Source: Botryllus schlosseri
Taxonomy: Eukaryota
Length of the DNA: 64,000 bases
Reading direction: 5' to 3'
Assembly (NCBI GenBank): GCA_051294905.1
Contig: CM119371.1
Coordinates: 8,620,001 to 8,684,000 of the forward strand
The translations under genes and the position numbers were made by a program. The notes under the pieces are model-generated. The model ran no database searches. It worked only from the letters and a program-made list of their open reading frames with translations, and was not told the DNA's origin. Shown piece by piece: positions 4,058 through 42,354 of this stretch. Position 1 is the first letter of the stretch. Every line of letters begins with the position of its first letter.

Positions 4058-4326
4058 AGTTAATACAATGACTATTTCTATAGTTTCTAAAAAATTGTGA
4101 CTAAATATTATGAACAGAAACTACATTTCCCACGCCAAGAGCAAAACAATGCGGTCAGATTATTTTTCGACTGACTCCGTGTCGACGAATCAATATTGCG
4201 AATATCGCGTCAAATCCCATTTCTCGTAAGCAAATATATCTTCCAAGAAAATAAGATGTACGGCAGATGAATGCCATCAGTAACCATGCATAGAAGTTAC
4301 GCATTACTGCTGAAGATCAACTTAGG

Positions 4327-21200: not shown

Positions 21201-24200
21201 CTAAAAATGTGAGTGGACCCTGCTGCCAATAAGTCGGCAGTGATATTTTAGTAATTAACATCGCAAGTGTCAGGGCCAGATTAATCGATTTTTTTATGTC
21301 CTTGCGACTTCACATTCCGAGCAATTCATTTTCGATATAATAATTTCGGAAATTACCTCGTGGGCCACTCAAAACCTTCTCGCAGGTCACTGGTAATCCG
21401 ACTCTGATATATATTGTAACCATATAGTAACAGAAGACAGGGAAACAATACACGCAAACAATTTAAACATTGATTTGATGAACGCACATGCGTCAGAAAC
21501 ATTAACGAGATTTTATATGCTGGCCACCCTCAATCAATTCATCAAAATTGGGGACGAAAGTTGGGTTTTCTGAAATATTCTGACACGTCAAAAAAAGCCC
21601 TACTAATCTCTAATCAGTGTCTAATCACCATCCGTGCACCCGACCTTTAGTCAAAGACAATTGTTCTGAATCTCGGGGCCGTTTGCCTTTATTCTTGGGA
21701 TCGCGAATAATTTAAATGTAATCAGCTTCCAAAATAGGCAGTCAGCAAGTCTGGGCATGATGACCTGTATTAGTAATCAGCTTATACGATTTTGAGCTGG
21801 GCCACGGAACATTTACTAATTGGAAATTGAGTCGCGACCATAATAGGTTAGAAACCACCGGATATGCAACCTGATGATGCATGTTATAGTAATATATGGA
21901 TGATCCAATATTATTGAAAAATCCATTGACATAACTTAACAACCAAACGCATATAGAAACCAGATGCATATAGGCTAGTAAGCCCCCTAAAAGTTGCATC
22001 GATTTGTCGATGGTGGGCCCAAGATCAGTGTTTTTTGGGTCTGAGCAGCGGTCCTACGGTGACAACACACAACCGCATAGCTTCACCAACCTAGCAGTAT
22101 AGCAGGTATGTCAAACACACGATTATTTCATCAGGACCGTGAAGAAATCTGTTGCCGACCGTAGCAATCACAGGAGCTCACATTAGAGATGGATCAATAC
22201 AGGACCCATGTTCCACTCCTGTATACTGTCGATAGGCAAAGATTTGCTCGTGTGACAAGATAATGCGATTTTCGCCTGATTTCGCTATATATAGATTGCT
22301 GTACGTCTATAAACGGTAAATCATTGTTACAGTACAGAACCTTAGGTGGGGCAACGCCCCAGTTGCCCAATAGGACTAGCCACCACTGCTTTTAATGATG
22401 TACTTGGAAAATATATTTTGCGAGTGTCTTAGATAGATTCGTTCGTTGTATGTGTAGAATTAGTTGTATTTATAATCGATAATTTAGATATTGTAGGAGC
22501 GCATTAGTAGGTAACATGGTGATGTTGCTGTCAGCATTGTGCGTCCTTGAGTTAATTCAAAACCCCAATCAGCCAATATATGAACAGCTCGCTACTTACA
22601 GAATCAAATTTGCATCCAGTTCTAAGAATCGGGACGACCGACTTTCATCCCTAATTTTGACAATGATGATGAGCAGCTTATATATTCTGGTCTATGTTTC
22701 TGACGCGTGTACGTCATCATCAAAGTAATGTTTGGTTTGTTTTAAATATAAAAATACATATATATATTATCCATTATGTCGGTAACTATATAATCAAAAA
22801 AAATATTGAATTTTGGCTTGATATCCAAATTTTATATAGTGCGGCCCGCCAATGGATTCAAATGTTCAATGAATCCAACGAGCTAAAAAGTTTGACCGCC
22901 CATGTTTTATGCTTAAGTAAAATTGTATTAAATAAACATTATGCGGATGTTGCAATTTATGTACTGCGAAGGCAGCTTTGCTGCATTTCATCCACCTTAA
23001 CATTGATTAGATGTTTTTGGTAAACGTATTCAGGACATGGATATCATCATTCCTCTATAACTCAAATGAATACACAGGGGTGATTATATTACGCTAACAA
23101 TATACTTCATAAATATATGTACTGCGAGTTTCAAAGTCTTCAAAGTGGCGAGAATACGACTACATTTCTAGGAAAGTACATCACCGAAAGCTCTATTAGC
23201 CGCCGAAACTCACCTTCATGAAGATGATCCGACGATTGATCGTAAATGATGCCGTACACGAATCTTCGGACAACTGACCATCGCTCTTTGTGAAGGTCCT
23301 CATAGTTAAAGACCACGAAGTCTAGGAGCGACATTTCAGCCACGAAGCCAGCTGCAAGGAATTCCTGCATACTTTGATGACAAAAATAAAAAATGAAACT
23401 GCCATCCAATAGATTGCAACTGAGAAGGTTATTTCCAGGAACCTTCATCATGAGATCTTTCACCTCTTCCTTTGAAATTCCAAACATGTTTAAATCATGC
23501 TCTAAGAATGACACTCTCCCTTCTTTCATGCCACGATAGGCCATCGCTTTCAATTTTTTGATAACTTCGGCGATGGCATCAGCTTGTTGTATGTTCCTCA
23601 CACTACTTAGAGTAGATACTATTTTTTTGTAGAGACCTGTGACCGTCTTAGGAGGGGCTTCGGTCGGATCTTTGGCCATTATCACTGCAGTTAAGACCAG
23701 AAAAACAGGAATGGAAACTAAATTGATCAACCTTGGTGACATCGTTTTTATCTTCTCCCATGCTTCATCCCCATTCTGACCTATTAGAAACACGAAAAGC
23801 TTGTTTGCGTCATCTAGGGTTAGGCCAGAAAGCGTGATGATTTCATCAGGTCGAGCTTCCACAGGTAAATCTGAGACTTGAAATTCTCGTGAAGATATGA
23901 CGATCTTTGTATCTGCGAGTAGATTACGTGAGAGGATATTGTACATGATCGTAGCCGCATCGGTTGCAGTATAAGGATTTATTTTCTCGTTGCCATCTCT
24001 GTTGATTCCCCACGTGGCCTGATCCAAGCCATCGAAAAATAAAACTGCTTCTGATTGATTTTCGAGCAACCACTGATATGCATGATCCTCGTCGATCTCA
24101 TTCTGAAAGAGGCCGCCAAAGAGAAATTTAGATGGTTTGATGAATTCTTTATGTCTCATGCCTTTCATTTCTATATAACGTATCAATTTGTACTTGAGCT

Positions 24201-25080
24201 CAGAGCTGCTAGCAATAGCTTCTGTATTAGTAAGAGAATGGCCTAAAGTTCTTCTAGCGATTCTGCGCATCAGAGTGGTTTTCCCCGATCCCGCAGACGC
24301 AACTATGGCAGTGATAGAACTTTCCTCATTGATAACTTGTTGCAAAACATCGTCAAGGGCGATGAATCTATTGTCGTCAATTTGTCGTCGGAGGAATCCG
24401 TACTCCTTTCTGAATTGATTTTTCGTGACTTCCTTAGTTTTCCAGAATAAAAACTTTCTCTTTGTTGTGACTTCCATGTCGTGCACCTCTTCATAATTGC
24501 CTTTGAAATACTCTGACCTGGTGACCCGCCTCATCTGGGGATGAACTTGAAAATCTGGTTTGCTGAGGTCCTCGTCGGCGAAGTCTTCGAGAATTTATCA
24601 GCCGTCGTTCTTGATGAATTTTTATTGATGGTTTGGATCAGACCTAAACACGAGTCTGTAAAATAGTATTGTTCGTGTATAGTGATATTTTACTAGTGAA
24701 AATGATGGTGTTCCAATGTTTAATATTTGTTTGTACTATTTCATGCGAAGACTTCCATATTCACGAAATATAGCATAAAGCAGACGGATTTAACCCGGGT
24801 TGTGTTTACCACTCGAGCGTGCGAAACATCAAAGCAAAGGTACAGCTGGAATGCGAAATCATTTATGAACTGATGCTCTGCTATATATCTAGATCAGGGG
24901 TCGCCAACGCGGTGCCCGCGAGGACTCGATGAGAAGCCCGCGATCCTGCTCTAAAAATAGATCGAAAAGCAGCATTTACCAATATTCTTCAGATCACTAC
25001 TAGTGAGCTTTAAAATATATAGATTGATTGATTTAGCTATTCTTTTGTAAATCACACTAACGTGTAACTTACAAATTATA

Positions 25081-25121
<41 letters not shown>

Positions 25122-28100
25122 AACCCTTAAAATGATGATATTAAATGTCCTCAATTACAAATAGTAATAGACCAACATGTAGTAGAATCACTTGATATCG
25201 AATACTTATAGACTACGGCGCACTGCCCATACTGGTGACATGACAGAATGCCATCCACGGTCTTCTTGAAATGGCGAGGGGTTCCGTTATGGTGGCTCGA
25301 CGTCCAGGACAATGCCATAGGAGTAAACAACATTACTATTCGGTAGCAGATAGCCGTGAAGCACTAGTAGATTTTCAATTTCTGGATGTCCATTACGGAT
25401 TGCAGCTATCGACACAGCTTGTTTCTCTTACACTCAGCCAGTTTAGTACCATGTTTCTAACTTTCCGTAATCGTGGCGGCTGTCCGGTATAATGAAATCT
25501 TTCAAGTCTGAATGATGAACAGTTGGAGATTGAAATTGTAACACTGCAAAAGGACCTCCACCTGAAAGCCCAACAAGCTCCAGCATCTACCGCAAACTAC
25601 ACGAATTTAAGCACTACTTGTCAACCTTAACCGTTCAACCAGACGTTATTCTTATTCAAGAATCCCATCTTGTCCAAAAGTACACACCGAAACCAGGGGG
25701 TCAACTAGCGGTGTCTTACAAAAGCCTAGAGGTGGGCCGTGCTATAAGTCGGCAGTTACGGAAAATAAAAAGAATATCGGCCTGGTGTAAATGACCATAG
25801 TAGTCGACAAACACCATGAATACCACAAACCAACCAACCAGGGGGTCAACTATTCCGCCGTGATACGACGGTGCACTCTGGCGGTATTGCCACTTTTGTT
25901 CGAGCATCGCTCAATGCGTCTCTTTCGAACAACGCCTCGTCATCCATTTTTGAGGTACTATGTGTGCGAGTAGGGAACTGCAACGTTTACATACCCCCGG
26001 ACTGTGAAACTACGGCTAGTGTTTTAGGATATTTGACTCTTTGTCATCACGCTCCATTATTTGCGGCGACTTCAAAGCACACCATTCCTCTTGGAGTCCC
26101 TCGACAAATGCACGTGGCAACCAACTTTGCGACATGATGGATAGAAACGACCTTGTCCTGCTGAATTCATCGTCACCCACTCGTATGAATGTTGCGTGTG
26201 ATGCCATCCATCGCTGGTCACTTCTTGACCTGTCGATGTCGTCTCGGGACATTGCGGCGAGATGTGCCACAACGGTAACCGACGAGCTCATAGGTAGTGA
26301 TCACGTTGTAGTCCAGACCACATACAATAATAGGGCGTCATGCAATTCATCAAAACGAAGATGGGATTACAGTAAGGCGAACTGGCCAGCCTTCTCGGCT
26401 GCTGCGGATTTCCACCTCCAATCCAACTTCGCTGCTATTGGGGAAACTGAAGCCCTCCACCGCCATTTCACGAATAGCCTACTTTTAGCGGCGCGAGAGT
26501 CGATCCCACGACCGAAAATATCAACGAAAATTGCCGTACCTTGGTGGAACGTGGAATGTATTCGTGCTGTGCGCAGGAAAAGGGCCGCTTCCTTGAAAAT
26601 GAAACGAACTTTTCACATTCGAGACGTGATCGCCTTCAAACGTATGAGATCCGAATGTCGAAAAAACATCCTTTCTGCTAAACGCAAATGTTGGGAGGAT
26701 TTTTGTGGTACATTAGACCGAAAGTCTGGCACGTTATGAGATCTATGTCGGGAGAGCATCTAGATCAGTGATTCCCAACCGCGGCCCTGCGGGCCGCATG
26801 CGGCCCCCAGCTAGCCTTCTTGCGGCCCCCACAAAAATATTGAGAAATCGATTTATGAAAAAAAATTAGATTTATAAAATACTCTTGCTTGGCTTGGAGT
26901 CTGGAGTTTTCAATTAGGATTGCAGGAAAGTTGTGAGTAGACTGCTAAGATTACGTCACTGCTGTTTCAATGCAATGTGCCCTAGCTTTCCAGTTGAACG
27001 GGCAGTACCTATAGATATAGGTATTGACAGGACCATACCTGCCGCATCCCAAGCCACCCAATTGGGATTTTTTCGCGCTGCGCGCGATTTCAAGTTTCCA
27101 AGTACCTTAATTATTCGGTACTCTTCGACAAAGATAAAATACGCAAAGACATATAGAAGTAGGCATATCGGCGCTGGCCATTACCGCGCCACGACGCACC
27201 AAGACATATGAAGTTTTAGGCCATGTAACATGCGACTCCTAGAAGCGTGCCAGAATGATCGGCAGCGAGAAAACCTTGGCCGAAAAGGACTGCCCTTACG
27301 CTGACCGAAAACTTCGTTATGTATATTCAAAATACATATAGGTATAATTGACCATAGGCGCCTGAATGACTGGCGCCGAATGTTCCTGTCTTGGCAATCT
27401 GAACGTCACGAGACAAATAGGCTACCATCCCGCAGGGAAAAATTATATGCCAGTGAAGAACTACCAATTTGAAATCGTGTGCATCTTTTAGTTTAGTATG
27501 TTTGGGCGATTCTATATTTCTTGATATAGCAGACTGTAGGTCACGAAATAACAAATAACACCAAGTAACGAAGTCGTACCAACGGGTTCACCCGTCCGAA
27601 TATGTTTAATTATTATTTACGGGCCCTACAGTTTCCAAGACACCTCACTCAGCTCTACCGGTAAATCTGATTACGTGAGCAAAGAGGATTAGCAATTGAT
27701 AGCAATATATATGCAATTGCCGATCTTATTGACCTATTTTATTTTGAATTATCGAAAATTTTCGCGCTCCATGCTGGCTCACTAAACGGGGATCCTGATT
27801 TCGTGGCAGAAGCGAACAACGGCACGGCGGGTCGGTTTATCACTCTATGGGAGCTAAGACCTAAGTGTTTTGGGGGGCCTGACGAAGTGCTGTTTTGTTC
27901 CCGCCAACAGGTATACGCCCGAAGATGTTTAATTATTATTGAGTGGTCCTACCTTTTCAAACACAACTCACTCGGCTCAACCGGTCAATCTGATTACGTG
28001 AGCAGAGAGAGGATAAAAATTGATACCAATATATATGCAATTCCCGATTATATTGACCGATTCAATCATGAATTTTATAAATTTGTCGCGATTAGTCGAG

Positions 28101-31100
28101 AGAAGCTGCCTAAAACGGACACCCGATTTAGATGATAAATAGCGGTAAATAGCCATCTAGCCGGAGGAGGTCTGGGGGCTTCGAAGTTCTGTTTATCACC
28201 CAATGGGGACCCAAGAGAAACGTTTTTTTGGGGGGGGGGCTGACGAAGTGCTGTTACGGCCCTTGGTATTGATAACTAATTTACGGATAGATGTGCAACA
28301 AGTGACTCACGATTGAATACGCCGAGATGCGTACTGCTTAGCAGGCAAAAAGCAGCATACTTTGTAATCCTATAGCTCGCGACCCAAGCGTCCGTATAAT
28401 TTGATATGTCGGTGTTTATCGAAAGCAAGTGTCGCACTGATTCCAAAAATACGAGTTGAAATCTCGCCAGGGCAATAAAACTACTCCGAAATAGCCAGCA
28501 AAGGTTGATTGTTCTGAACAACGGGAGCGCGGCAACACAATGGCCATTGGCGTCAAGCGAATGATCGGAACAAGGCCAATTTTCATATTTTGGCGACTAT
28601 TTTGGGTTCCTTTCATTGCCTTGGTATTCGTGCGGCCCCGGCCGTACTCTGAAATTCTAAATTTGGCCCTGCCACCGAAAAAGGTTGGGAACCACTGATC
28701 TAGATCTATGTCCATACCAACGCTGAAGTCGAACGGATCTATTTCACAAAATAACAAAACCAACGCCAATACACTTGCTTCACACTTCGCTAAAACGAGC
28801 AGCTCCGACAACTACCCAGCAGGATTTCGTATAACGAAGGCTAACTTTGAAAACACGGTTCATCTTACCGCTGACAACGAACCAGATCGGCACAGGAATT
28901 CGAACATAAACATCGCATTCAGTCTTCCCGAACTAAATCAAGCTTTGCGTAGCCGAAAATCCACTGCACTTGAGCAGGACTCCAGAGGGTATGCGATGTT
29001 AAAAAAATCCATCATCCTCCGGTCGCACCGACCTTTTGAAACTATACAATGCATCCTGGGATACTGGGAAATTGCCAGTCTCGTGGAAACATGCTATAGT
29101 CTGCCCAATTGCCAAAAAGGGCGAAGACCCTACCTCGGCGGACTCATACCGCCCTATATCCCTCACGAGTCACATTTGTAAAGTCATGGAGGTAATGGTC
29201 ACCAATCGCTTAAGATGGGATTTGGAGTCAAAAAATCTGATACATCCTTCACAATCCGGCTTCCGACGCGGTCGAAGCACCCTGGACAACATACTGCGTC
29301 TCCACGACACGATTTACAAGAATATCCACCATCAGCGATCGGTGGTAGCGGTCTTCTTAAACATAAGACGAGCCTACGATATGGTGTGGCGCCACGCACT
29401 TCTGTACGAACTATACCAACTCGGAATACGCGGACACATGCCCCAATGGATTACAAATTTCCTTTCTGACAGAACTTTCCAGGTTACCGTAAGAAACAGT
29501 CTTTCCGACAGTTACGTGCTGCAGAACGGTATACCTCAGGGAAGCGTCCTCAGCCCTTGCTGTTTGCGGTCATGATCAATGATTTACCGAGCTCGTTAGG
29601 TCATCGGTGTGAACATGCGCTGGTCGCAGATGACTGCGCTGTCTGGGATAGCGGTATTTTTATCCAGCCCCCTTTGTCTTCCATTCAATCATCACCCGAT
29701 GTAATAAGCGACTGGTGTTCCAGATGGGGGTTTACAATCAGTAAGGCCATGACCGTAGGCATGCTGTTCACGAAAAGGAAAATTCCTCCCCTCATCGTGA
29801 AAACTGGTGACCATGAACTTGAATTTGCCGACACCTACAAATATTTGGGTATCACGTTTGACAAATTGCTCAACTATAAGCAACATATCGATACGATTTT
29901 CAAAAAGTGATCCAACAGACTGAATCTAATCAGAGTCGTGACTGGTACCGCATGGGGGGGCGAGTAAAAAACCGTTGCTGCAGCTTTCCTGGGCGCTGAT
30001 ACGCTCATTGACTGACTATGGGTTACCAGCATATTACTTCGCCCAAAAAAAGTATTTGGACAGGTTACGTACCATACGAAATCAAGCTCTCCGCCTTTGC
30101 TGCGGAGCAATGCGCAGCACTCCCATTTGAGCACTGGAAGCATCATGTCACGAACTTCCTCTCCATCCACGCCACTAACAGCTTAGCCTTACCTATTGCT
30201 GTCACCAAGCTCACGAACACCCAACAATAGGAGTGCTTGAAGACTCTTGGCAGGAGATATATAGCCTCATGAACCCAAAATTCATTACCTTCAACATCAC
30301 CACCAATATCGAGGCTCTGAATAACCTTGTCCTGGAAAGAAGAACTCTTCAAGATTTACCTCCATGGCTGATGCAATCGCCTAACATTGATTTAGACCTT
30401 GCAAAAATCATTAAATAAGATGTCGAACCTCTGTCACATAAACCCACAGTCCTGGACTTCATATTCGAACGACATAACGATGCCACTGAACTATGCACTG
30501 GCGGCTCTAAATCAGCAGAGGGAGCCGGCTTTGCGTTTACCATCCCATCGCTGATGATAAACTTTTCCCAACCGTGTTCCACCCCAAAGTCAATATTCTC
30601 CATAGAAGCAAATAGTGGCGGCTCGTGACAATATCGGGTGGTGGGGCACGGGCTGCAAGCGACTTTTTATCATGATGTCGTCACAATGGCGTTTTCCAAC
30701 GTAAACAAGTAACTTAATGATGGTACGGTAACAAGAATTTCCCGACAACAGTGATTTTAACGTATGTGCCACGAGAGGTCTGCCGGTGAGCTGTGACTTG
30801 AAGTGTGGTAACTGCGTAAACGGCGTACGGAACAAAGATTCAACACGGTTCATGTTCGCACTTGACCTGACTAATTATCTGCTGAAATGGAAATAACTAT
30901 AACTCGAGAGATTGCGTAAGCCTAACTGGAAAGGTCAACGAGTTCGGACACATACGCAATTGTTATCTCATAGGTTGGGCCTGCCATATTGAATCCAAAA
31001 CATCATTCTGAAGAACTAAGAATAGCAGCCTCGGAAATTCGGTCTCGGTACAGCATAGGAGATTTTGGCCTTGAAACTGGAGACTGTAACACGACACATA

Positions 31101-34100
31101 CGGCTTTATTACTGTCTATAGATTTGCTGCGAAATCGCCTTTGGAAAATATATTACCGAATAAATACGTGGATGAAAGCCGTGCACTTAGTACACTGTTA
31201 CAGGACATCATCGAGAAGTAGCCTCATGGCCCTTTTCGGTATGGTACACTGTCAAAATTAATATGAACAGACCAACACTGAATTTTGCGTAAAATTTACT
31301 GAGGAATAGGCTTATCAAGTGATCAGCTGTTAGCCGCCATCGAAAACGAAATAGCTATCACGCTTGACAGAGGGTTGTAAGCAAATGGCTTGAAGTCCAC
31401 AATTTCACGGTTAAATTGACATTGGCGAATATAATATAAAAGTAAATATTTGAATGCAAACCGAGAATGTTAGTAAACTGTTTCATGATATCATCATCTC
31501 ATCACCTATCTCAGTATGGAACACAGTTAACGTTAGCACAGATACACCGGCTTTTGCGTGAAATCCGCAATGCGTTGTAGGCTAAAGTGTCAGATCAGCG
31601 CACATCTCTACCATACTCGACCTTGATAACGAAATTACTGCCCTAATCATTGAGTGTCAACCTTGAGACTGGACACAGCGTTCGATACTAAAATCAAGAC
31701 ATACCGTGCCAAAGCTTATGACGGATCTAGGTAAGGAGCAATGCCTCAGTTGCCCTATAGGACGAGCCGCCACTGGAAGCAAAAGCCATTCTCCACGCTC
31801 TAAAATGGATCTGCCAGAATGGCTCATACCGCCAAAGATACCTGATTCTCTCAGACAGCCTGAGCGTACTATCCGCTATGACCAACTTGCAGGCACAGCA
31901 AACGCAGAATGTTATATTTGAATGTGGTCGCTTGCTGAATCAAGCGATTCGGAAAGGCGCCATCGTTGTCCTGGCCTGGGTACCGGAGCATGCTGATATC
32001 GGTGTTAATGAGTTTGCCGATAAATTGGCTTGGCAAGCTGCCAGGACCGATATCGAGAATAGCCTTTCTCCGACTCTTCCAGACGAAATTAGCGACACTG
32101 AGGGGAAAGCCAAAGTACGTCAATACTGTAGAGCGAGCTGGAACGCCGAATATCATAGAAATGAGCGAGGAGGTCACTATCGAAATTTCCATAGATCATT
32201 GACTGATGGCCACTCTCCATCGATGCATCGACATAGGCTTCACGGACGAATAATATTTCGGCTTCGTTCAGGCCATTGCCGCCTGAAAACGCATTTATAT
32301 AAAATTGGATGTAGCGACACCGACCTATGCGACCATTGTACAGTACCTGAAACAATCGAGCATTTTTACTGCACTGCAATCGATATGATTTCCATCGGAA
32401 CTTTTTATTCGACGGGGCGCGCGAGCTCAAAATCACTGCAACACTCGAAAATCTACTGATCATCCCCGAAATGTTATCTCATGTTGCAGAGTTTGTTCTA
32501 TCTTGTGGTACTTACTTGTAAATCGGTTCTTGCCCACATTTTGGTATATCGATCGCACATTCTAGTCAGTGACGCACCTGCCCTCACACGCGAAAAGCGT
32601 CACTCCCCTTTTCATCAATGATAATAATAATAATAATATCTTTCCGTAATCGTGACGGCTGTCCGGTATAATGAAATCTTTCGAGTCTGGATGATGGACA
32701 GCTGGAGATTGAAATTGTAACACTGCAAAATGACCTACACCTGAAAGCACACCAGGCTCCAGCAAAACTTTGGTGCCTTGTTGACACGGAAAAGTACATT
32801 GGTGTATGCGCATCAGCTATAAGGTTTGCAAGCATGTTTGGTTCAGCTTATCGTTGTGAATCAGCCTTTTCGGGACATGAAATTCATCAAAAACAAACAC
32901 AGAACACGCTTCACTGATGCTCATCTGGAACACTCACTCAGAGTTGCCGTGTCAAGTTACTGTACCACAGTACAGCGCACTTGTTGATAGCGTGCAGTGC
33001 CAGGCTTCCCGCTGACTGATATAGGAACAGTTAACATGATGTCCTGATGTCCAGTCTAAAGTGTGACATGAATTATTTAAAAAATTGAGTTGACTGTTGT
33101 TGTGTCATTTATACAAACATGGTGCGAAGTAAGTCATGATTTCTTTAAAATCCTTAAGGGCTAGACTCTCTTATAAATCTTACCGCAATGTCATTCCTGC
33201 CCAGTGCTATGAATAGCAGAAATTCAGTCTTTTATGGATAAACGGAGGGAGTGAATGGTAGCCCGTCGTTTCACCCAGTACCGAAAAAGTAGCTCTTGAT
33301 AGCAAAAAGGTTGGTGACCCCTCATCTAGAAGGTGCTGGGTGGTGAATGCAATTCTGAAACTCTAAAGGCTTAATTGGGATTGATGTACATTGATGATCG
33401 TCCAAAAAAATATTAACAATTGGAGAGTAACTTCACAGAGGCTGTTCCAGTTGTCAAGTCGGTTTCTCAAGTGTAATTATAAGTAGTGTCGCATAATTCT
33501 ATTGAAGTAGGAATAGAAATATTGCTTGTCCCTGCATCCCAAAACTACTTCAAGCAAATGTAGAATTTTCTGTCTTTGAAATCTGCTCAAGTAAGTAAGA
33601 GGTTTAGAAAAGCTATCAAAGCTATCAAAAGCTCTCATTGATATGCTCTCTTGGACAATGAAAACCTGGCAACCGATATATGTGGATGGTGCAGAAACTG
33701 GGTTTGTGTTGCTACATATCATGCAAGTGGTATACGTTTCCAGCAGCATATGGATTCAGTCGCAGCACGTGATACAAATCATAGCTTCAGCACATTGGTT
33801 CTATACGTTTATATCCCAGTGCACCTCCTTGGAAGATGCCACTGTATGCCGCCCAAACTCGCATTCCGTAGCCCGTGGTAAACAAGAGGATGAGCGAAAC
33901 AGATGAGTTGTATCGGATATTACATTAGCGGTTTTAGCGGATAGGAAGGCAACTGAAAATATGTCAGATCGTATAATTTCAAACGTTGTGCTTACGCTAC
34001 TGCATGAAGCTGTTATATGGCGACTTTGTGGACAAACACTGTACACACGAACACGCAACATAGATTTTAATATATCAGAGATTTTCGTGAGAACACATAT

Positions 34101-37100
34101 ATTTCCCTCGAAGCATGACGGAAGTTCTGGACTCTCCTGGAAAACGCCCCTGACCATAGCTGCCTTGGCCACTTTCTCTCTCTTATGGTACGAACATAAC
34201 ACTTCTACTTGACAAACTAGATACAACACCATAGTAGCCGTTGCTATAATTTATAGAACATAGAATATTTATTCTGTATGACTCGAGTCGTTTCAACATT
34301 AGGTACAGCTCTAGGAAGTAAGTCACTATATGCAAGTTTGGTTGTCATAAATATCGAGTAAGACATGGACTTCGATTAATCAGCATAATATACTAATTGC
34401 TGCAAATTATAATTGCTACCACTAGAATTTTCTTGAATCACCAAACGTATTCTTGTTCCGGCCACATCAAAATGACGCTTGGCCTGATATCAGGATTTAG
34501 CCGATGTAGCCTGAAAGAATCATGATGTTCCTTCCGAATTTAATTCTGGCTTCGCTAATGGACTTTATTGGGCATGTTGTTTCATTGCTATCTATTGGCC
34601 CACCAGACTGTTCCGCCGATTCATATTCTGTATCCTGGCTGCATTTAAAACACGTTACCTACGCTTGGATTACATCTGTATCCATTATTTATTTCGACGC
34701 CATTTTCACTACATATTTGATTAAATGGCTCCTCGTACAGAACTTGAAAGTTACACTCAATCGAATGTCCACCACATTACATTTTTTTATATTGTTCGAA
34801 GCTTCTCGATTATCTCTATTCAAGAATAACCATTATTACCGCGGTAAATACAAATGATCAAATTGAAACAAAGCATTATCAATGGAAATGTTTATGACGT
34901 CATCTTTGACTATGGCGCTCGGAATCCAAATGCGACAATGAATACTGCAAAGCGGCACGGACATCGGCTTGGACTATCCATAAAATCACTGTATAGTGCA
35001 CATAGCGGGTCTCATAAAACTGTCAAAACATGTGACTGGAGGGATCTTAGCATGACTGGACAATAGGGCTGTTAAAAAATAAGTTTTTTTTACGGATTGC
35101 AGCCATTCACTTATTAAATTGTCAGGTTACCCTAAAAAACGCTGCACACCAAATTTGGTTCAATTCCGACAAGTATAGGACTCCGCAGATCCAATTAAAA
35201 TTTTTAATTTATTAGGAAAAATTGAAAAAAAAAGAAATTTCGAATTTTTCTGCCAACCCCATGAAATTGTTGAGCTGTCTTCAAAGTCCATGCAAAACAA
35301 ATTTGACTCAATTCCGACCAGTAGAAGCGGAGTTATGTGAGTTTTTCGTTGATAATTCTCGGATTATCCACCGATCTGAGATGGATATGGAGATGGTAAC
35401 CTGACAATTTAATCAGTAAATGGCTGGAATCCGAGAAAAAAAGTTGTTTTTGAACAGCCCTACTGGACAACCGAGACCGGTTTAATACTGTATGTGGAAA
35501 GCTACCATCACCAGTCTTTTTTTCTGAAATTCGGCCGATAACTTCAATCAATGTGTTTGCGAGAGAAGCCTTTAGTGAAGATTGTTCAGGATACGGGTGG
35601 TGTTCAGTATAGCTTCATTTTCTAATAACTTGAAATTTAATACTAGAGAGTAGGTTAGAGCTTCGCATGAGGAGGCCTGTACCAAATCTCCATATTCCGT
35701 ATAATCGCCCATAGGCAGTTCGATTTTGAAGTTGTACTGAACTTTGATGCGGAAAGTGTCGGTTAATACTGTATTGCCTATGACGACAGCGTGCTCCAAT
35801 CTGGATTTTGCGACATTGAGCAACCACGATCTTTTTATTTGTAAAACGCGATTCCCTACTGTAATACACAGTAAAACAGGACGACACTCACTCTGATCAA
35901 CGGTACTTGCTTCCCTTTCCGCATTCATCATGTTGTTGGTGACGTAATTCCGATCTCCAGCTACGATGTTAACCGTGCTCTTTATTAATTGTAAATTGGC
36001 GATTCCACCATCCGCCAGCGTTGCAGATCCTGAGTCACAAGATAATATTTTAATTCCGGCGATGTGGCGATGCATATTGGAAAAGTATTATATTTGAACA
36101 GCTTTTTGGAGGTACAGACCTTCAATATAGAATTGAATATGATATTCATATCGAAATGAACCCGTATCAGTGTTGGGATCGAGTCACTACCTTCGAGTCA
36201 GGAGTCATTTCGAGTCATTGCACATTTTGACTCGAGTCAAGTCAAGTCAATCCATTTTCGAAGGTGACTCGAGTCAAGTCAAGTCACTCGATTTTCGGAG
36301 GTGACTCGAGTCAAGTCGAGTCAAGTCAAGTCACGAGTCAAGTCACAATTCAAGTCAAGTTGCCTTTTTGAAGTATGAGGTATGATCACGTCATTGCATT
36401 TTGCTAGCTGTCTGGTTTACAGATTGGCAAGTGGTCATTTATTTTGAACCGATGACCGAATATAGAGTTAAATATACACGCAATAAGGCGCTGTCTTGTT
36501 CACATATACGTAGAACTGCTAAACTACGTAAGTAAGGGTATAGCCTCAGTTTATAGTTACCAGCTAAAATAGAAAATGGAGAAACGAATTGATAAGATGC
36601 AATGCATTACCCATTTACAAATTGATATGATACAATTTGAGCCTGGGCCAAGGGTTGAGGACTATATAAACTATATTCGAAAATCAATTTCAATACTACA
36701 AGAGGTTTGGTTAAGGTAAGAACAGAAAAAGACATTTTGCTATATTACTTCACTATACTAGTTTACGACAACGTAATAAGATGTAAGTTTCGATCACTTC
36801 GTTTGCGGTCAATTTATTTGTGAGAGAACAATGGAGGCTCAGTAAAACGCACGATCATTGAGTGATTGGTCGCTCTCACGGGTTACACCAGCGTCTCGCG
36901 AACAACCCGAACGTATGCAAGATACAGTGATTTTTATCGTCACAGATTACTTGATGACTTGAAATTGACTCGTGAATTTTGCTCCGAGTCACGAGTCAAT
37001 CCACATTTCTGATACGCCGAGTCAAGTCAAGTCAAGTCATTTTAGCAAAGTGACTCGAGTCAAGTCAAGTCATACGAAAAAGGTGACTCGAGTCATCCCA

Positions 37101-39983
37101 ACACTGACCCGTATATTTTCGGCTTAAACTCGTCAGGAATAATCGTCCGAAACTCGTAGAGAATTGGGAAGAAAATAGTATATCAACAATCGTATAACAG
37201 AATATGACGTCACCAGCCTGAAATTTCGAATGCGAGAGCATCCAATGTACTGTTTTTAGATGGTACATGAACTCTTTTTGTTGACACAGCCTTGGCTGGT
37301 GTATTTTGATACTGGTTGATCTACTAGTTCTCTTCTAGTTGGAGACGATTACCCCTGGCGAGTGTCAACCGAAAATATTCGGATTCATTTTAATATGAAT
37401 ATACTATTAAAAAAATATATATCAATAAATGCGGATATGACAATAGAAACGTCTTTGCGTTACATTTACTAGTACCGTGGTTCTCAACCTTTTTGACCTC
37501 GCGCCACTCTTTGAAAATGAAAAATAGTTCGCGGCACACTAGCACAGTGGTTCGGAACATTTTTTGACTTACGGCAGCTGCAAACTACCAGAACATTTAG
37601 CACAGTGGTTCCCAACCTTTTTGTCTTCATTCCCCACTTCAGATTTATTCCGAGCCTTCATTCTCCACCAGGACCGTAACAGCACCTCGTCAGCCCACCA
37701 AAAATTATTGGTCTTGGGCTACCCACATGGTGATAAACCCAACTTCTGGGGGGAGGGCTTCGAACCCCGTCAGTCCCCTGAGTCGGTACCCTTTTCCCTG
37801 TTACTTATCAGCTACATTTGGTCTACTGTTTAGTGCGTCGCCTTATTTCGACTAAACGCGCGAAGCGCGAAAAATTTATATAATTCATGTTTGAATCGGT
37901 CAATATTGTATGTAATTGCATATATCTTGCTATCAATTTCTTATCCCCTCTCTGCTCACGTAATTAGATTTACCGGTAGCGCTGAGTGAGGTGTGTTGGA
38001 AAAGGTAGGACCCCTAAATAAGAATTGAACATCTTCGGGCGGACCCGTTGGTATATTGACTTCGTTACATTATGCTATTTCGTGACCTCCTATATATGTC
38101 AAAAGATTTGGAAATCGCCCAAACTAAAAGGCATACACGATTTCAAATTGGTGTTGCTTTACTGACAAATAATTTTTCCCTGCGGGATGGCATATGTCCT
38201 GTGGGATTCAGATCGCCAGGACAGGAACATTTGTCGCCAGCCATTTAGCCGCCTATGGACAATTAATCATATAAGTATATTGTATATGTATCAAAGTTTT
38301 CGGTCACCACAAGGGCATTCCTTCTCGGCCAAGGCCTTCTCGCTACTGATCGTTCATAAGCCTTGGTGCGTCGCGGCGCAGTAATGACCGACGCCGAAGT
38401 CTCCATTTCTATAAATTCTACGGATTTTCGTGGGGGAAGGGTACCCAATAATCAAGATATTCGGCAATATTAAATCACGCACCCAGCGCAAAATATATTT
38501 TGCAAAAGTGGCATAAATTTAAAAAAAAAAACTCTATTATTTATGTTAATTCACGAAATAATTTTGGACCTATTCGAGCTCGCCCTTCCCCAATTGAGGG
38601 GTTTGGCGTGCGGCAGTTACGGTCCTGTTCCCCAATACCCAACACTTTTATCATCACAGAGCAGCTATTTGCTGGTTTGACTACACAAGACACACAACCA
38701 CACCAGTACGCAAGACAATCGCCTATAACTGCAACATAAAACGTGCTGTGAGCCGATTTTTCCGAAAGCGTTATTTCACGTCAAACTGTCGTTCTGGATG
38801 CGTTTGTGACGCCACCATTGGCCATCCATAGTTGAAAATGAGGTTTTGTGAACAATGCGCAATGTAATTTTCGATATATACATTCCAGAGCAGTTAACTG
38901 GTAACGGTAATTGCGCATGTGTCTCCGTCAATATGTAGACTGTCCTGTATATAATTTTGAACAAATGCGTCTCTTCCCCACCAGAAACCATTGAATTCCC
39001 CACCAGAATACATTGAATTTCCCACCAGTCGGGAATTCCCCACCGTTTGGGAACCACTGATTTAGCAGAACCCACAGTAGTAATGAGGTGATCTCTGACG
39101 AAGTACTTCTACCTTTTCGCAGCACGATGTTTCAACGAGATCGCAGCAGGTCAGTTATGTTTTAGCAGAGGTAATAGCTAAAAATTAAAAACCTTGCACC
39201 GAAACAGCGGGAGTTGTTCTTCTGAATTGCACTAGAACTGTAAACAAATGTTTGCGACCATAGCTGTGGAAGAAAGGAAAACGATTCCAATGTCTAATGA
39301 TACTACGTATACTTATTTGTGACATGTCCGCCGATATAGAAGATACCGTAATTTCTTCTCTGGAGCGGAGCAAAGTCTGCTTCAGTGTTCCGAAAAAGGT
39401 AGAAGTATTCGTCAGAGACCACCCGTTAATGTTTGTTATTCAAGTTTGCAAACTTGAACATCACTTCCAAAGGATTTCATTTCTCGCTGGTGATTAGGAA
39501 GACAACGAGGATTTGAAAACTGCAGTGTCACGTAGGCGCCGCCATAACTGCTATCCTCTGCGATCAGCAACCGTGCTGTGCAAACCTGAATTCAGTCCTT
39601 AAAGCACGCGATGGCATGGCAGGAATTTTGATTTGTCATATGTACAAACTTCACATCAAGTCTGATTTAGAATATTGATCCTTTGCTATAGACCAGAAGT
39701 ATTTTGCACATAATTTCAAATCTCTCGCGGCACACTTGCGAGACGTAAATGGCACACTAGTGTGCCGCGGCACACCGGTTGAGAACCACTGTACTAGTAT
39801 TAGGTCACGCAGAGTACGAATATTGTTATATCTAGCTAATTCGGAAAATATTTTATATGGATAAATTCGAAAAAATGAATAAGAACTGCTCTATTTCAGT
39901 GTTTACTTACCGCTTTCCCCGGGTGGTAATGATGTAGGCACATCAGCGACATCGTGACCTCCTTCGACGCCTTCTTCCGCCAT
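9182..39983 (-). CDS. Multi-exon NLR-like gene (RHIM-like N-terminus, NACHT, degenerate LRR); 3' end uncertain; possible frameshift near 24595
   Basis: GT-AG exons read by hand with compatible phases: 39983-39911, 36029-35892, 24655-23214, 20562-20258, then probably 12960-12859, 10621-10541, 10380-10213, 9934-9739, 9233-9182. NACHT motifs are unambiguous. Confidence 0.8.
9395..9700 (+). mobile_element. SINE family A (tRNA-like head, CAAC-type tail); other copies at ~3085-3205 (-), ~13600-13760 (+), 25708-25835 (+)
   Basis: B-box-like GGATTCGAGTCC; shared body ...gggccgtgctacaagtcggcagctacggaa...cctggtgtaaatgaccatagtagt...; ends caaacaacaac. Confidence 0.75.
9739..9934 (-). CDS. NLR degenerate LRR exon (IEYIRC...NSNLKKISLIHTS...ELEVLK)
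   Basis: Acceptor ccaccgcag|, donor G|gttagt, phase 0-1, inside ORF 9734..10006. Confidence 0.65.
10213..10380 (-). CDS. NLR degenerate LRR exon (VGLLDIAVNGQISTDDYKRIL...ACQQKK)
   Basis: 168 nt open, phase 0-0, acceptor catttaag|, donor AAG|gtatag. Confidence 0.65.
10541..10621 (-). CDS. NLR C-terminal (LRR-sized) exon MSKILLDCTQEENVDWSLIETNLEKYQ
   Basis: 81 nt, phase 0-0, acceptor gttcag|, donor |gtacga. Confidence 0.65.
10887..11310. mobile_element. hAT MITE
   Basis: TIR CAGGGGCGGGCAAC / GTTGCCCGTCCCTG; TSD agttagaa/agttcgaa. Confidence 0.85.
12190..12342 (-). CDS. Possible NLR exon (DSNLYFYRIH...ECKLEK); boundaries uncertain
   Basis: Acceptor ttgtcacag|, donor AAG|gtataa, inside ORF 12184..12411. 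An upstream acceptor at 12538 reads into stops. Confidence 0.35.
12859..12960 (-). CDS. Probable NLR exon (VVELTVGGWYVELKNEEEVIKISGRVVEGHFNTK)
   Basis: Acceptor tattcag|, 102 nt open in phase 0-0; donor gttgga is weak. Confidence 0.45.
13227..13510 (-). pseudogene. Possible hAT transposase C-terminal remnant
   Basis: ORF ...HLSAGLNISQYVDEDPEPRII resembles the region preceding the hAT dimerisation domain; judged by eye only. Confidence 0.3.
13926..18215 (+). repeat. Tandem duplication: unit 1 13926-17063 (with Chapaev3 inserted), unit 2 17064-18215
   Basis: Both units start ctagcgactatgac(a/t)tacccaatcgcgag and are collinear for ~1.15 kb with few differences. Confidence 0.92.
14479..16453 (+). 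mobile_element. Chapaev3 (CMC) DNA transposon, decayed
   Basis: CAC...GTG termini, TAA TSD. Broken transposase PPLHIKLGLIKQFVKAL...SEAK..GVFIGPQI...EQG.RLHQDI...RYQG...MMGDYVW at ~14996-15510. Right end internally duplicated. Confidence 0.85.
18002..18875. mobile_element. hAT MITE with GACTCGAGTCAAGTC subterminal repeats (same family as 36168-37106; truncated copy 16834-17063)
   Basis: TIR CAGTGTTG / CAACACTG; perfect TSD gcttatta. Confidence 0.9.
19420..19652 (-). mobile_element. tRNA-derived SINE family B (MetaSINE-like central domain)
   Basis: Minus strand: A box TAGTGTAATGG, B box GGTTCAATCC, followed by GGTCAAACCACAGACTGGAAAACTGGTATCC...GCTAGGCGCTCAGCA. Confidence 0.75.
20258..20562 (-). 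CDS. NLR HD2/first LRR exon
   Basis: Phase-1 acceptor matches the NACHT exon donor; LRR motif LKCLNLSYCNINDELLAII; donor CAA|gtgagt. Confidence 0.85.
21690..22255 (-). repeat. Diverged inverted copy of 17715-18001 + 18876-19150 (lacks the MITE)
   Basis: Reverse complement matches, e.g. gttgcatcgat...ggcccaagatcagtgtt, gaaaccagatgc, atcagcttc. Confidence 0.75.
23214..24655 (-). CDS. NLR NACHT NTPase + HD1/WHD exon
   Basis: ORF 23140..24534 shows Walker A ASAGSGKTT, Walker B LFFDGLDQ, sensor-1 ISSR, PVFL and WHD FCHQSMQEFLAA. Acceptor ttttacag| at 24656-57, donor G|gtgag at 23213. Confidence 0.95.
25081..25121 (+). repeat. (AC)n(AT)n compound microsatellite
   Basis: Direct reading. Confidence 0.95.
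25708..25835 (+). mobile_element. 5'-truncated SINE family A inserted in the LINE endonuclease domain
   Basis: 17-bp TSD aaccagggggtcaacta at 25691-707 and 25836-852; (CAAC)n tail. Confidence 0.9.
26766..28697. mobile_element. hAT (Charlie-type) non-autonomous element inserted in the LINE between EN and RT
   Basis: TIR CAGTGATTCCCAACC / GGTTGGGAACCACTG; perfect TSD atctagat. Confidence 0.92.
30613..31775. mobile_element. hAT (Tip100-like) non-autonomous element splitting the LINE RNase H domain
   Basis: TIR (T/C)AGTGGCGGCTCGT; perfect TSD gaagcaaa; RNase H reading resumes (EAKAILHAL) after removal. Confidence 0.92.
35064..35462. mobile_element. hAT MITE (TAGGG ends)
   Basis: TIR TAGGGCTGTT(A/C)AAAA; perfect TSD ctggacaa. 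Confidence 0.9.
35892..36029 (-). CDS. NLR exon encoding RHIM-like motif (GSATLADGGIANLQLIKSTVNIVAGDRNYVTNNMMNAEREASTVDQ)
   Basis: 138 nt, phase 1-1, acceptor tcttgtgactcag|, donor |gtgagt; lies inside ORF 35572..36075. Confidence 0.75.
36168..37106. mobile_element. hAT MITE with GACTCGAGTCAAGTC repeats
   Basis: TIR CAGTGTTGGGAT / ATCCCAACACTG; perfect TSD acccgtat. Confidence 0.92.
37475..39791 (+). mobile_element. Charlie/Buster-type hAT remnant with nested MITE
   Basis: TIR C(C/A)GTGGTTCTCAACC; TSD tactagta. Decayed transposase ~39150-39390 (SYVLAEVIAK...IPMSNDT...DMSADIEDTVISSL) of the ZBED5/Buster type. Confidence 0.85.
37603..39059. mobile_element. hAT MITE (same family as 60432-61492)
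   Basis: TIR CAGTGGTTCCCAA; perfect TSD atttagca. Confidence 0.92.
39911..39983 (-). CDS. NLR first coding exon (MAEEGVEGGHDVADVPTSLPPGES)
   Basis: Acceptor cattttcag just above 40027, ATG in context atcATGG, strong donor G|gtaagt; phase 1 matches the next exon. Confidence 0.7.
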
Positions 39984-42354
39984 GATAACGATCATGTGAT
40001 ATTAAATAGGTACTATACCAAGCAATGCTGAAAATGTAAGAACAAAAAACAGAATATTTGATCATTTTAATCAATAGATTCGAATTGATTTTTAGATTGC
40101 CTAAAAGCGCAGCACAATGTATGACTCAACATCAATTACTATATAATCAAAGTCGTCGCAATCTGTATATCCTTCAGCGTGATTTGAAATAATAGTATTT
40201 ACGTTCGGAAATTTCGTCACTTCGCCATGACCCGAAACCGTCTTCCTGGCATCGCTCAGAGAAGAGTGAAGTTTCTTACATATCTATATATATATTCCAA
40301 ACCAGACTCCAACGTTCCGCAGTCTTGGCCTCGTTCGCGGTATTGTATTTACCAAGTGATTTTACATGGCGCGAGAGAAATAATACACTGTAAATCCGCA
40401 AGGTCGTATTGAACACTTCATAACACTTTTTTCTGCGTACAGACACACTTTTTGGGCATATAAACGCATTGGGCCATTATCGTCGCAACGCTTCTGCGTA
40501 TTTCTCCGTTTACATGTAACACTTCGCCACTGCGGCTTATTTTCAAGAAAATTTATACTTGGTAATTTATCATCAATTTTGCATTCATAAACCATCGCTA
40601 CGTTTGGATATCACATTAAATCATGGTATATGTAAAATAATATTACTCATTTGACCCAACACTCAGTTTAAGGGTTTTATTTCAATGAAATATACATATT
40701 TCCCTGTGACGAAGAGGGGTCCCAACCTTCGTTACGGTAGAGCGCACTCGATTTCAGTTTGGATTTGAATTGGTGGTTCGTCGGGCTTCAGGCAGAGAGT
40801 AGGGTACACGAAAAAACTTGTCGAAATGGATATATTGAAGCAGTTTCTGCTACCTGATGGCGTAAAGGATCATAACATCCATGTACTGTAAGGTATGGAA
40901 ATGCGGTAAATGTTATTGAATGTATGTAATGTGAGAATAGTCATAAAATTAACTCGTTTTGACATTGCAGTAACGTCGTTTGTTTTAGATGTTTTAGCAG
41001 GCTACTGATATCCCTTATTCATATGAATGTTCTTTAGATGTTTTGTAGTATATGATTCGTCTGATATTATTGCTGGATGATCGAGCTTTGAATCTGATAA
41101 TATATCAGGCTGCGACCAGGTCCAGTACTACGGTACTGATGGGAAGCTGCTATAAAAGTAACTTTTTTGACATATGGATAAAGGGATGTTCTCTCTATCC
41201 ACACTGAAATATCACTATGTAGGCGATATTGTGGTCCATTGTGGACAAGTACTGCAATGTCAGCAATTGAATGCCGGTATGACAGTCATGCAACGGTTTT
41301 GATTGTTTTTCAACTGCAACACATTTTACACTGTAGGCCTACTGTTTATTTCAAGTGGTAAGGTGTTAACTAAAGCGATTTTTTTTGAAATGTCAAAATA
41401 GGTCAGAATTTTGTCAAAATTGTACCGTTAGGTCAAACATTGCCAAAATTCTTTACAAAATCAAAATTTTGTTGGCAACTTGCATTTTGTTTGTATCATA
41501 GATGATTGCACTGTCGGTGAACTTATCATTTTACAATTTACATCTTGTAGCCTACTTTATAGTCCTACCGTTGTAGACGGACCATCGTCTGCTCATTGTG
41601 AATCATAAACTGTCAAATGAAACAAATACTCAACGTAGCCTATTGCACTATCCTAACTGAATCAAGACTGCGTGGGCATTGGTTCTTCTATTAGAAACCG
41701 TATGATGAATAATTGCGATGTAGACAACTTTGTCATAATGAGAGAGAGAGTGCAGTGTACGCACAACTTAAGTGTTGCCGGCCAACAACTGCAGCTGGTG
41801 AACGTTCTTTCTTCATTCTTGCCAAGCTACTTAGTTAGGACAGACACTTTCTACCCGAAAATGTAGGAAAGTATCTTTCGTTGTTGTACTACAACAAATT
41901 TTTAATTATTTCTACCATAATACGAGATGTAACTAATACTAGAATTATTCATGGGTCCAGATTTCGATAAAATAAGTTCTTTCTCATGTAAAAATTTGTC
42001 AATTTTCATGCTAAAAGATTTTTTCAGGTCAAATTACTTCGGAAGAACAGACAGCTCCAGCCAGAAATAAAGATGAGTTCCGGTAATACAATTCTAACAC
42101 TATGTGAGAAACACCTAATTTAAGTACATGGGGTCAAAATTAAGTTTTTCATCATCAAAATATGTGTGAATTTGAATTTTTTAGTCATAATCTTACTTTT
42201 TTAGGTCCAAAAAAATCGCCCCAATAATAACACAGCCAAACAAACAATCTTTTCAACAAACCATGGATCACAAGGGGTAGTATTTGTTTTGCCCAATCCC
42301 CAAATTTGACTTTTCTGAGTTTATTGTGATACGGTAACTGAACTAAACTCTATT

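Follow-up and report, generated by a model that had tools for sequence, protein, structure and literature searches.

The RHIM is carried by RIPK1, RIPK3, ZBP1 and TRIF. In the account of Kajava et al. (2014; PMC4262963), its key elements read GIQIGA in RIP1 and GVQVGD in RIP3, and its C-terminal extension consists of a conserved Asn, a variable residue and an apolar residue. The same account describes many RHIM proteins in amphioxus, including the RHIM-NACHT-repeat protein BF82280, and states that tunicates appear to lack RHIMs; since BF82280 is published, an animal NLR (nucleotide-binding, leucine-rich repeat receptor) with an amyloid motif in the slot of a death fold is not a new idea. The amyloid signalling motifs of fungi and bacteria (HET-s/HRAM, PP, sigma, BASS; NWD2/HET-S) are described as stretches of ~20–40 residues at the very N-terminal end of NOD-repeat receptors (PMC7889193, PMC12261475, PMC4344463, PMC5485727); two of them, PP and BASS3, count as homologues of the RHIM (PMC12261475). 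For ascidians, NLRs without any N-terminal domain have been reported (PMC11508797). Here, a stretch of 64,000 nucleotides (nt) of Botryllus schlosseri (assembly GCA_051294905.1, contig CM119371.1, positions 8,620,001 to 8,684,000; "the window") was analysed, the minus strand of which holds an NLR gene with a short N-terminal motif exon that had been likened to a RHIM in a preliminary description. We lean towards regarding the encoded motif as a lineage-specific N-terminal interaction cassette, unfolded as a monomer, which would replace death folds in a large tunicate NACHT-LRR family.

The motif exon and its gene family

All coordinates of the NLR gene are positions within the window, the minus strand being the coding strand. 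The motif exon (138 nt, 35892–36029, minus strand) is entered and left in phase 1 between an AG and a GTGAGT, with the boundaries reading ...tgactcAG/GATCTGC at 36029 and ...GATCAGA/GTGAGT at 35892. It encodes SATLADGGIANLQLIKSTVNIVAGDRNYVTNNMMNAEREASTVDQ, corresponding to residues ~26–70 of the modelled protein, in which the codons at 35935–35994 (minus strand) specify LQLIKSTVNIVAGDRNYVTN, the stretch earlier likened to a RHIM. Upstream, exon 1 (73 nt, 39911–39983, minus strand) was read from the sequence as an ATG at 39983 followed by 24 codons, one further nucleotide and the donor GTAAGT; its peptide is MAEEGVEGGHDVADVPTSLPPGES and its 3' end reads ...GAAAGCG/GTAAGT at 39911. Exon 3 (23214–24655, minus strand), delimited by paralogue alignment and Pfam, comprises a pre-NACHT segment and the NACHT/NOD module and extends from a conserved acceptor (...ttttacAG/ACTCG, start 24655) to the donor GAAG/GTGAGT. 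The NACHT open reading frame (ORF) of 484 residues (23140–24594), ~11 kb downstream of the motif exon, was recognised by Pfam NACHT at E = 3.1e-13 (50.3 bits versus a cut-off of 26.7) and contains the Walker A sequence GSGKT.

A search of the 495-Mb, 219-contig assembly revealed at least 70 matches with the window copy of the motif as query. A query closer to the consensus raised this to at least 102 at E ≤ 0.01, with 150 out of 157 candidates having been scored. Alignment of 30 copies gave the consensus SATLAEGENVNLxFxKSxVNVVAGDQINVxKxVxNI, the exon encoding ~45 residues, of which ~29 make up the conserved core (SATLAEGENVNLxFxKSxVNVVAGDQINV). Eleven columns of this alignment are conserved to at least 90% (A2, L4, A5, G7, N11, S17, V19, N20, V22, G24 and Q26), while their neighbours vary freely.

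The motif exons were found to head NACHT exons. On the same strand and within 25 kb downstream, a NACHT exon was present for 56 of the 102 motif copies, as opposed to 2 of 102 for the upstream control and 0 of 102 for the opposite strand; the underlying NACHT set is incomplete, as it was obtained by scoring the best 88 of at least 216 candidate paralogues and comprised 90 matches of 50–80% identity. Sixteen "orphan" motif loci that were fetched yielded five further NACHT exons (L054, L058, L061, L063 and L066), those of L054 and L058 being just 21–23% identical to the NACHT exon of the window and still headed by the motif. An intact, compact paralogue on contig 9 (L002; 4.6832–4.6853 Mb) accommodates a 73-nt exon 1, a 138-nt motif exon and a NACHT exon, the latter in phase behind a strong acceptor, in a span of 0.8 kb, the intron between motif and NACHT measuring 430 nt. 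Upstream of the motif exon, a Met-initiated homologue of exon 1 (MAEGGQD.NSGVADV.PTSLSPG.S) was detected in 17 of 29 paralogous loci within a 1.5-kb flank. Given these homologues and the layout of L002, the three-exon arrangement is not due to chance. The 73-nt and 138-nt exons of the preliminary description are, together with their peptide, present as claimed, with canonical splice sites read in the sequence. Their proposed splicing to the NACHT exon was borne out as a layout, by L002, the 17 of 29 loci and the Pfam NACHT match, but not as a join in the window, which is out of frame and for which no RNA joint was seen (see below).

Analysis of the ratio of non-synonymous to synonymous substitution rates (dN/dS) revealed for the motif a pairwise median of 0.23 (299 pairs, first 28 codons, dS ~0.85) and for the adjacent pre-NACHT segment a pairwise value of 0.16 (148 pairs). 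As a dS of ~0.85 is accompanied by low dN/dS, the conservation exceeds that expected from recent duplication. We conclude from these rates that the motif is under purifying selection across the family.

The motif matches no Pfam family, and the 171-residue ORF holding the window copy gave none at E ≤ 1. When a library of 1.84 billion protein representatives was searched with the family profile, 13 matches at E ≤ 0.001 were obtained, of which twelve were short genomic ORF fragments reading through the introns of the exon and one was a low-complexity artefact, so that no annotated full-length protein with the motif was found among these representatives. The same short ORF fragments were recovered by a word-based protein search, and in the ESM Atlas only hypothetical proteins were hit (best score 0.79). 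No description of an N-terminal motif of tunicate NLRs was found in the full-text literature searched.

To the N-terminal side of Walker A, no Pfam match was obtained in the leader or in the ~95–115 preceding residues of exon 3. The AlphaFold2 model of the exon-3 protein (22-sequence alignment) reached a mean pLDDT (predicted local distance difference test) of 72 and revealed a NOD-like alpha/beta fold, ahead of which only a short strand, a helix of two turns and a further helix of low confidence were predicted, with no six-helix bundle. With a motif–NACHT intron of 430 nt, L002 offers no room for a further domain exon. According to these models, the N-terminus contains no hidden death fold, and the earlier statement that neither a death fold nor a TIR domain lies ahead of NACHT held when the residues before Walker A were tested with Pfam and AlphaFold2. 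The motif itself was modelled as a monomer (30-sequence alignment) at a pLDDT of 48 without secondary structure. A four-copy complex prediction of the 45-residue exon peptide scored 0.02, with the alignment unused and no controls, and constitutes no evidence either way.

Close pairs of motif exons were observed at some loci. On the minus strand of contig 1 (L013, ~11.7626–11.7639 Mb), two 147-nt motif exons at positions 343–486 and 1501–1644 of the locus lie 1.1 kb apart, both with AG/GT boundaries in phase 1-1 and with an exon-1-like segment in between. A protein with two motif units was considered for this locus and dropped, since the intervening exon-1-like segment renders duplicated 5' modules more likely; the tandem appears to represent either alternative pairs of first exons or a duplicate that is dead. 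Contig 2 has comparable close pairs (26859365/26859874 and 39494759/39495504).

Comparison with RHIMs and other NLR leaders

The preliminary description had proposed a RHIM-like amyloid nucleator on the NLR, which, by homology or convergence, would template a RIPK-, ZBP1- or MLKL-like partner upon NLR oligomerisation. Several observations are in keeping with this proposal. In the account of Kajava et al. (PMC4262963), the RHIM-NACHT-repeat protein of amphioxus exists and RHIMs occupy the positions of death folds there; the length of the tunicate motif, its Asn/Gly/hydrophobic pattern and its disorder as a monomer are typical of amyloid signalling motifs; and as tunicates are described as evolving fast (PMC8662601), a RHIM could have diverged past recognition.

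Direct comparison did not reveal kinship. The Pfam RHIM model (PF12721) gave no match at E ≤ 1 in the 171-residue ORF holding the motif exon and none in the 30 family copies at E ≤ 10, although very weak matches may be lost to the filters of HMMER. When the family profile was compared with 177,635 PDB sequences, no chain of RIPK1, RIPK3 or HET-s was retrieved at E ≤ 10. The core reads N-I-V-A-G-D in the window and N-V-V-A-G-D in the family consensus, rather than (I/V)Q(I/V)G; Gln at the second core position occurs in none of the 30 aligned copies, and the RHIM core tetrad (I/V)-Q-(I/V/L/C)-G is accordingly missing. The N-Y-V of the window fits the C-terminal extension of RHIMs and is specific to this copy, the Q-I-N-V of the family having the Asn directly before the apolar residue. 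In the same place, GDRNY of the window stands against GDQIN of the family, in which Q26 reaches at least 90% conservation and I27 and N28 represent the consensus.

A six-frame scan of the 495-Mb genome with PF12721, in which only the best candidates were scored and for which the 22-position model is a weak probe (curated cut-off 20 bits), revealed no RHIM above the cut-off. The three sub-threshold matches lay in short, stop-flanked frames without gene evidence. The absence of a RHIM above the cut-off agrees with the report of Kajava et al. (2014) that tunicates lack RHIMs, and among the 16 orphan loci inspected, a motif-bearing kinase or pore-former was not found. Judged by its sequence, the motif is not a RHIM, and a RHIM-like nucleator, whether homologous or convergent, is quite improbable. 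Of the earlier claims, RHIM kinship was thus not upheld: the G-D-x-N-Y-hydrophobic-T likeness depended on residues peculiar to the window copy, a copy that is probably dead; GDxNY, for which conservation among paralogous NLRs had been proposed as a check, was not conserved in the 30-copy alignment; and the RHIM-bearing partner that had been envisaged did not emerge above the cut-off of the genome scan.

Like the tunicate motif, the RHIM is short, non-globular and flanked by disorder, with hydrophobic strands around a Gly turn and an Asn nearby, and the RHIM of amphioxus BF82280 resides N-terminally on a NACHT-repeat protein, in the slot of a death fold. The two differ in that the tunicate motif has no match to the RHIM hidden Markov model (HMM), no (I/V)Q(I/V)G core and no kinase or ZBP1-like partner seen. 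With the fungal and bacterial systems, the tunicate motif shares its shortness and its place at the very start of a NOD-repeat protein that has no globular effector domain. Further common traits are a second, non-NLR carrier, a composition of G/N/Q and alternating hydrophobic residues, and the absence of a fold in the monomer. No Pfam family of fungal amyloid or NLR-terminal motifs was matched in the scan of the 30 copies at E ≤ 10. Whereas the fungal or bacterial partner is a neighbouring executioner with the motif at its C-terminus, the second tunicate carrier is an NHL propeller with the motif at its N-terminus, and an NLR and its partner were not seen side by side in the tunicate genome. 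In animals, the CARD, PYD, Death and DED domains of NLRs and the Death-NHL and DED-NHL proteins of amphioxus provide the counterpart in position and in the presumed job of homotypic adaptor binding, with the difference that these death folds are six-helix bundles of ~90 residues, as opposed to a core of ~29 residues without a predicted fold.

The closest named relatives of the window NACHT exon are ~30 NLR models of Styela clava (~35% identity), followed by a caspase-NACHT protein of Clavelina. The leaders of the Styela models P0005–P0033 consist of tandem short units without a known domain, these units being 33 or ~69 residues long and present in 2 to ~16 copies, and the number of complete units varying between isoforms; examples are 33-residue ETNITDSHIQEVRAEQIHEVHAEKVVQNVTNID units and leaders of the type MADQGQQQEGANIVNIQGSNINEV... 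The Clavelina protein (P0034) has a caspase p20 domain and NACHT in addition to a short leader of similar type. Like the window family, the Styela leaders have no death fold and carry short units rich in N, Q, I, V and E after an MA(D/E)xGQ start; they differ in that their arrays reach ~14–16 units, whereas one unit per gene is the rule in the window family. Homology between the motif and the Styela or Clavelina leaders was examined and could not be demonstrated, since the HMM of the 30-copy alignment scored at most 1.7 bits on all of them and hhalign assigned a probability of ~2% (P = 0.02–0.03), leaving a likeness by eye only.

NHL-propeller genes and a possible mode of assembly

On contig 8, four motif exons are clustered at 3.86, 3.92, 3.97 and 4.01 Mb, and in the two of these four copies examined, an exon 1 of the NLR type precedes the motif exon and NHL exons were found downstream of it (Pfam NHL down to 3e-25). 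For the copy at 3973600–3983590 (L060), the motif exon (212–349) is followed by a linker exon without an ATG of its own (3205–3421) and by NHL exons at 3486–3597, 4285–4477, 4534–4718 and 4774–5088. A splice model with AG/GT at every junction and compatible phases gave a clean ORF of 385 residues with a terminal stop. The second copy (L007 and L067; 3862238–3873369) likewise has exon 1 and the motif exon, combined with a shorter linker that uses a different acceptor, again in phase 1. These models point to a putative family of motif-NHL proteins. Amphioxus relatives of the NHL proteins (P0131, P0134 and P0135) have a Death or DED domain at the N-terminus, and within 8–10 kb downstream of the two contig-8 NHL copies no NLR was found. 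Among the 16 orphan loci as a whole, NACHT and NHL were the only families to reach the curated Pfam cut-off.

For the interaction cassette towards which we lean, the following sequence of events is proposed. Oligomerisation through NACHT would bring the N-terminal motifs together, and the assembled motifs would then recruit other motif-bearing proteins, a job that is done by death folds elsewhere. As a conjecture, G7, a strand N-V-N-L-x-F, a turn K-S, a strand V-N-V-V-A, a turn G-D and a strand Q-I-N-V might be arranged as a stack of beta-arches. The near-invariant Asn and Gly residues would suit such an intermolecular, amyloid-like stack, the motif being roughly as long as a single rung of RHIM or HET-s. 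A cross-beta, amyloid-like assembly of the tunicate motif is, from its residue pattern, possible. The farther-reaching proposal, according to which the motif would constitute a second metazoan family of signalling amyloids, unrelated to RHIMs, with a one-rung beta-arch stacked by NACHT oligomerisation and present on at least 100 NLR genes and on NHL proteins, where it would have replaced death folds and the lost RHIM, is in our estimation unlikely.

A conserved linear peptide that does not engage in homotypic contacts was weighed against the interaction cassette. Such a peptide might act as an autoinhibitory leader on its own NACHT or LRR, allow an unrelated adaptor or an E3 ligase to dock, or serve as a signal for localisation or degradation. 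The motif is short, disordered as a monomer and conserved, no motif-bearing effector was found, and the presence of the motif on both NLR and NHL proteins would fit a shared tag for binding a regulator or adaptor just as well as homotypic pairing. A core of ~29 residues with an Asn/Gly periodicity is, on the other hand, long for a docking peptide; the motif sits where other NLRs have homotypic modules and where the amphioxus NHL proteins have Death or DED, and the cassette-like duplication of 5' modules resembles domain shuffling. On this evidence, the linear peptide is a somewhat unlikely explanation.

Several points weigh against the interaction cassette itself. Self-association of the motif is shown by no experiment and by no predictor, AlphaFold2 giving no structure. 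Among the 16 orphan loci inspected, no motif-bearing protein of the executioner type (HeLo, MLKL, kinase, lipase, caspase) was found, and within 8–10 kb downstream, nine of the 16 were without NACHT, NHL or any other Pfam family above the cut-off. The NHL partner is a sensor-like propeller and not an effector. To our knowledge, NHL is not an executioner. The splice from motif to NHL is a model derived from phases and splice sites only, and as the contig-8 copies are 85–91% identical even in non-coding DNA, their conservation says little. The dN/dS pairs are non-independent and cover just 28 codons. For the window gene, finally, no RNA joint in support of a splice was seen among the 15 of 41 listed, the reads having been mapped on the window copy.

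The window copy and its bearing on the NLR family

To the gene described above belong two introns that are unusual in size. Intron 1 (36030–39910, minus strand) is inflated by repeats to 3.9 kb, compared with only ~0.1–0.9 kb in the paralogues in which exon 1 was found, and contains tandem and inverted repeats. Short tandem repeats (AGTCA-based, 33–37-nt units) extend over 36133–38987, and inverted-repeat copies are common to intron 1 (37.9–38.2 kb) and to a retrotransposon region (27.4–28.1 kb). The depth of RNA reads over intron 1 is high, the reads being mostly only partly aligned and many of them 90–95% alike, as is typical of dispersed repeats; the high depth of such partly aligned reads suggests an abundant, transcribed dispersed repeat. 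Intron 2 (24656–35891, minus strand) measures 11.2 kb and holds a non-LTR retrotransposon on the plus strand (~25.2–32.7 kb), the ORFs of which matched Pfam Exo_endo_phos_2 (2.5e-14), RVT_1 (4.7e-25) and RNase_H (4e-6); direct repeats of 128 nt are located at 25458 and 32637. RNA reads accumulate on parts of this retrotransposon (25200–32700), and since many of them are only 90–95% alike, related copies elsewhere are transcribed. Downstream of NACHT, a probable exon of the repeat (LRR) region (20270–20572, minus strand) was indicated by tblastn with the C-terminal repeats of the Styela NLR P0020 (E = 2.6e-10), the Pfam LRR_6 match being weak (E = 0.005, 17 bits, below the cut-off).

Comparison of exon 3 with 21 paralogues revealed a deletion of 1 nt in the window (24592–24598, minus strand), which reads gATAAATTc where the closest paralogues read gATAAAATTc. 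Of an A4 run at ~24594–24597 that is kept in all 21 aligned paralogues, the window has lost one A, and all 21 stay in frame across the site. Starting at 24655, the phase-1 frame is recognisable over LIQxINxN...TADK, shifts beyond this segment and meets a TGA after ~41 codons; owing to the deletion, the 484-residue NACHT ORF lies in a frame other than the phase-1 frame coming from the motif exon.

RNA reads were taken from four RNA-seq runs of two studies, each sampled at 6–13%, and were accepted at an identity of at least 90% over window positions 23000–40100. Across the four runs, the depth was 0–0.6 over the NACHT exon and 0–1.2 over the bin of the motif exon; hardly any depth was found on all three exons, and such coverage as there was derived from repeats. 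Neither the joint 39911/36029 nor the joint 35892/24655, across which RNA had been suggested as a check of the gene model, was among the 15 of 41 RNA joints listed, and no RNA data set was listed as containing the NACHT exon. In its motif, the window copy departs from the family with R26, N27 and Y28 in place of Q, I and N.

Taken together, the frameshift, the swollen introns, the atypical motif and the near absence of RNA reads make it fairly probable that the window copy is a recent pseudogene. Two observations argue against this: the deletion sits in a homopolymer, where an assembly error is possible, and a weak cryptic acceptor with an exon start at 24584 would restore the frame. Being probably dead, the window gene is a poor test object. 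A short motif in the absence of a death fold, as foreseen in the preliminary description, stood as a conserved and selected trait of the family, but not for the window gene, which is frameshifted and has almost no RNA reads.

The same evidence bears on the explanation that the motif has no specific function, being a leader inherited through recent segmental duplication of NLR genes and, in the window, the 5' debris of a dead gene. Besides the window copy, which is frameshifted, atypical and almost without RNA reads, many recent duplicates exist, with NACHT exons up to 80% identical, and 43 of 90 NACHT matches have an internal stop, some of them from read-through into an intron. A dS of ~0.85 at a dN/dS of ~0.22 does not conform with mere recency. 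G7, N11, S17, V19, N20, V22, G24 and Q26 are conserved to at least 90% among freely varying neighbours, and the motif persists on the NACHT exons of 21–23% identity (L054 and L058) and on NHL genes. A leader without function is, on these grounds, very improbable.

As to the individual family members, the 43 of 90 NACHT-exon matches with at least one internal stop include read-through past the donor into the intron, and for L031 a true in-frame stop was found (TAG within ...QVHP-stop-MRR...); many NACHT family members may be pseudogenes. The copy closest to the window motif exon is located on contig 9 (64% identity), its NACHT exon being just 53% identical, and the copies closest to the window NACHT exon are located on contig 1 (78–80%), their motif exons being ~49% identical. 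This mismatch suggests exon shuffling or gene conversion, as read from the pairwise identities, within the family.

The intuition that a short motif takes the place of a death fold is correct, and beyond the window gene it applies to NHL proteins and to an NLR family numbering at least 100 genes. As ascidian NLRs have been described without an N-terminal effector domain in the account of PMC11508797, the motif represents a concrete candidate module for their signalling: ~45 residues, conserved and selected, with at least 102 copies, located on two receptor classes, and not contained in Pfam. If the motif self-assembles, a chordate lineage would have swapped death-fold and RHIM adaptors for a short motif of a new kind; without self-assembly, it would still be the leader that defines a large NLR expansion specific to this lineage.

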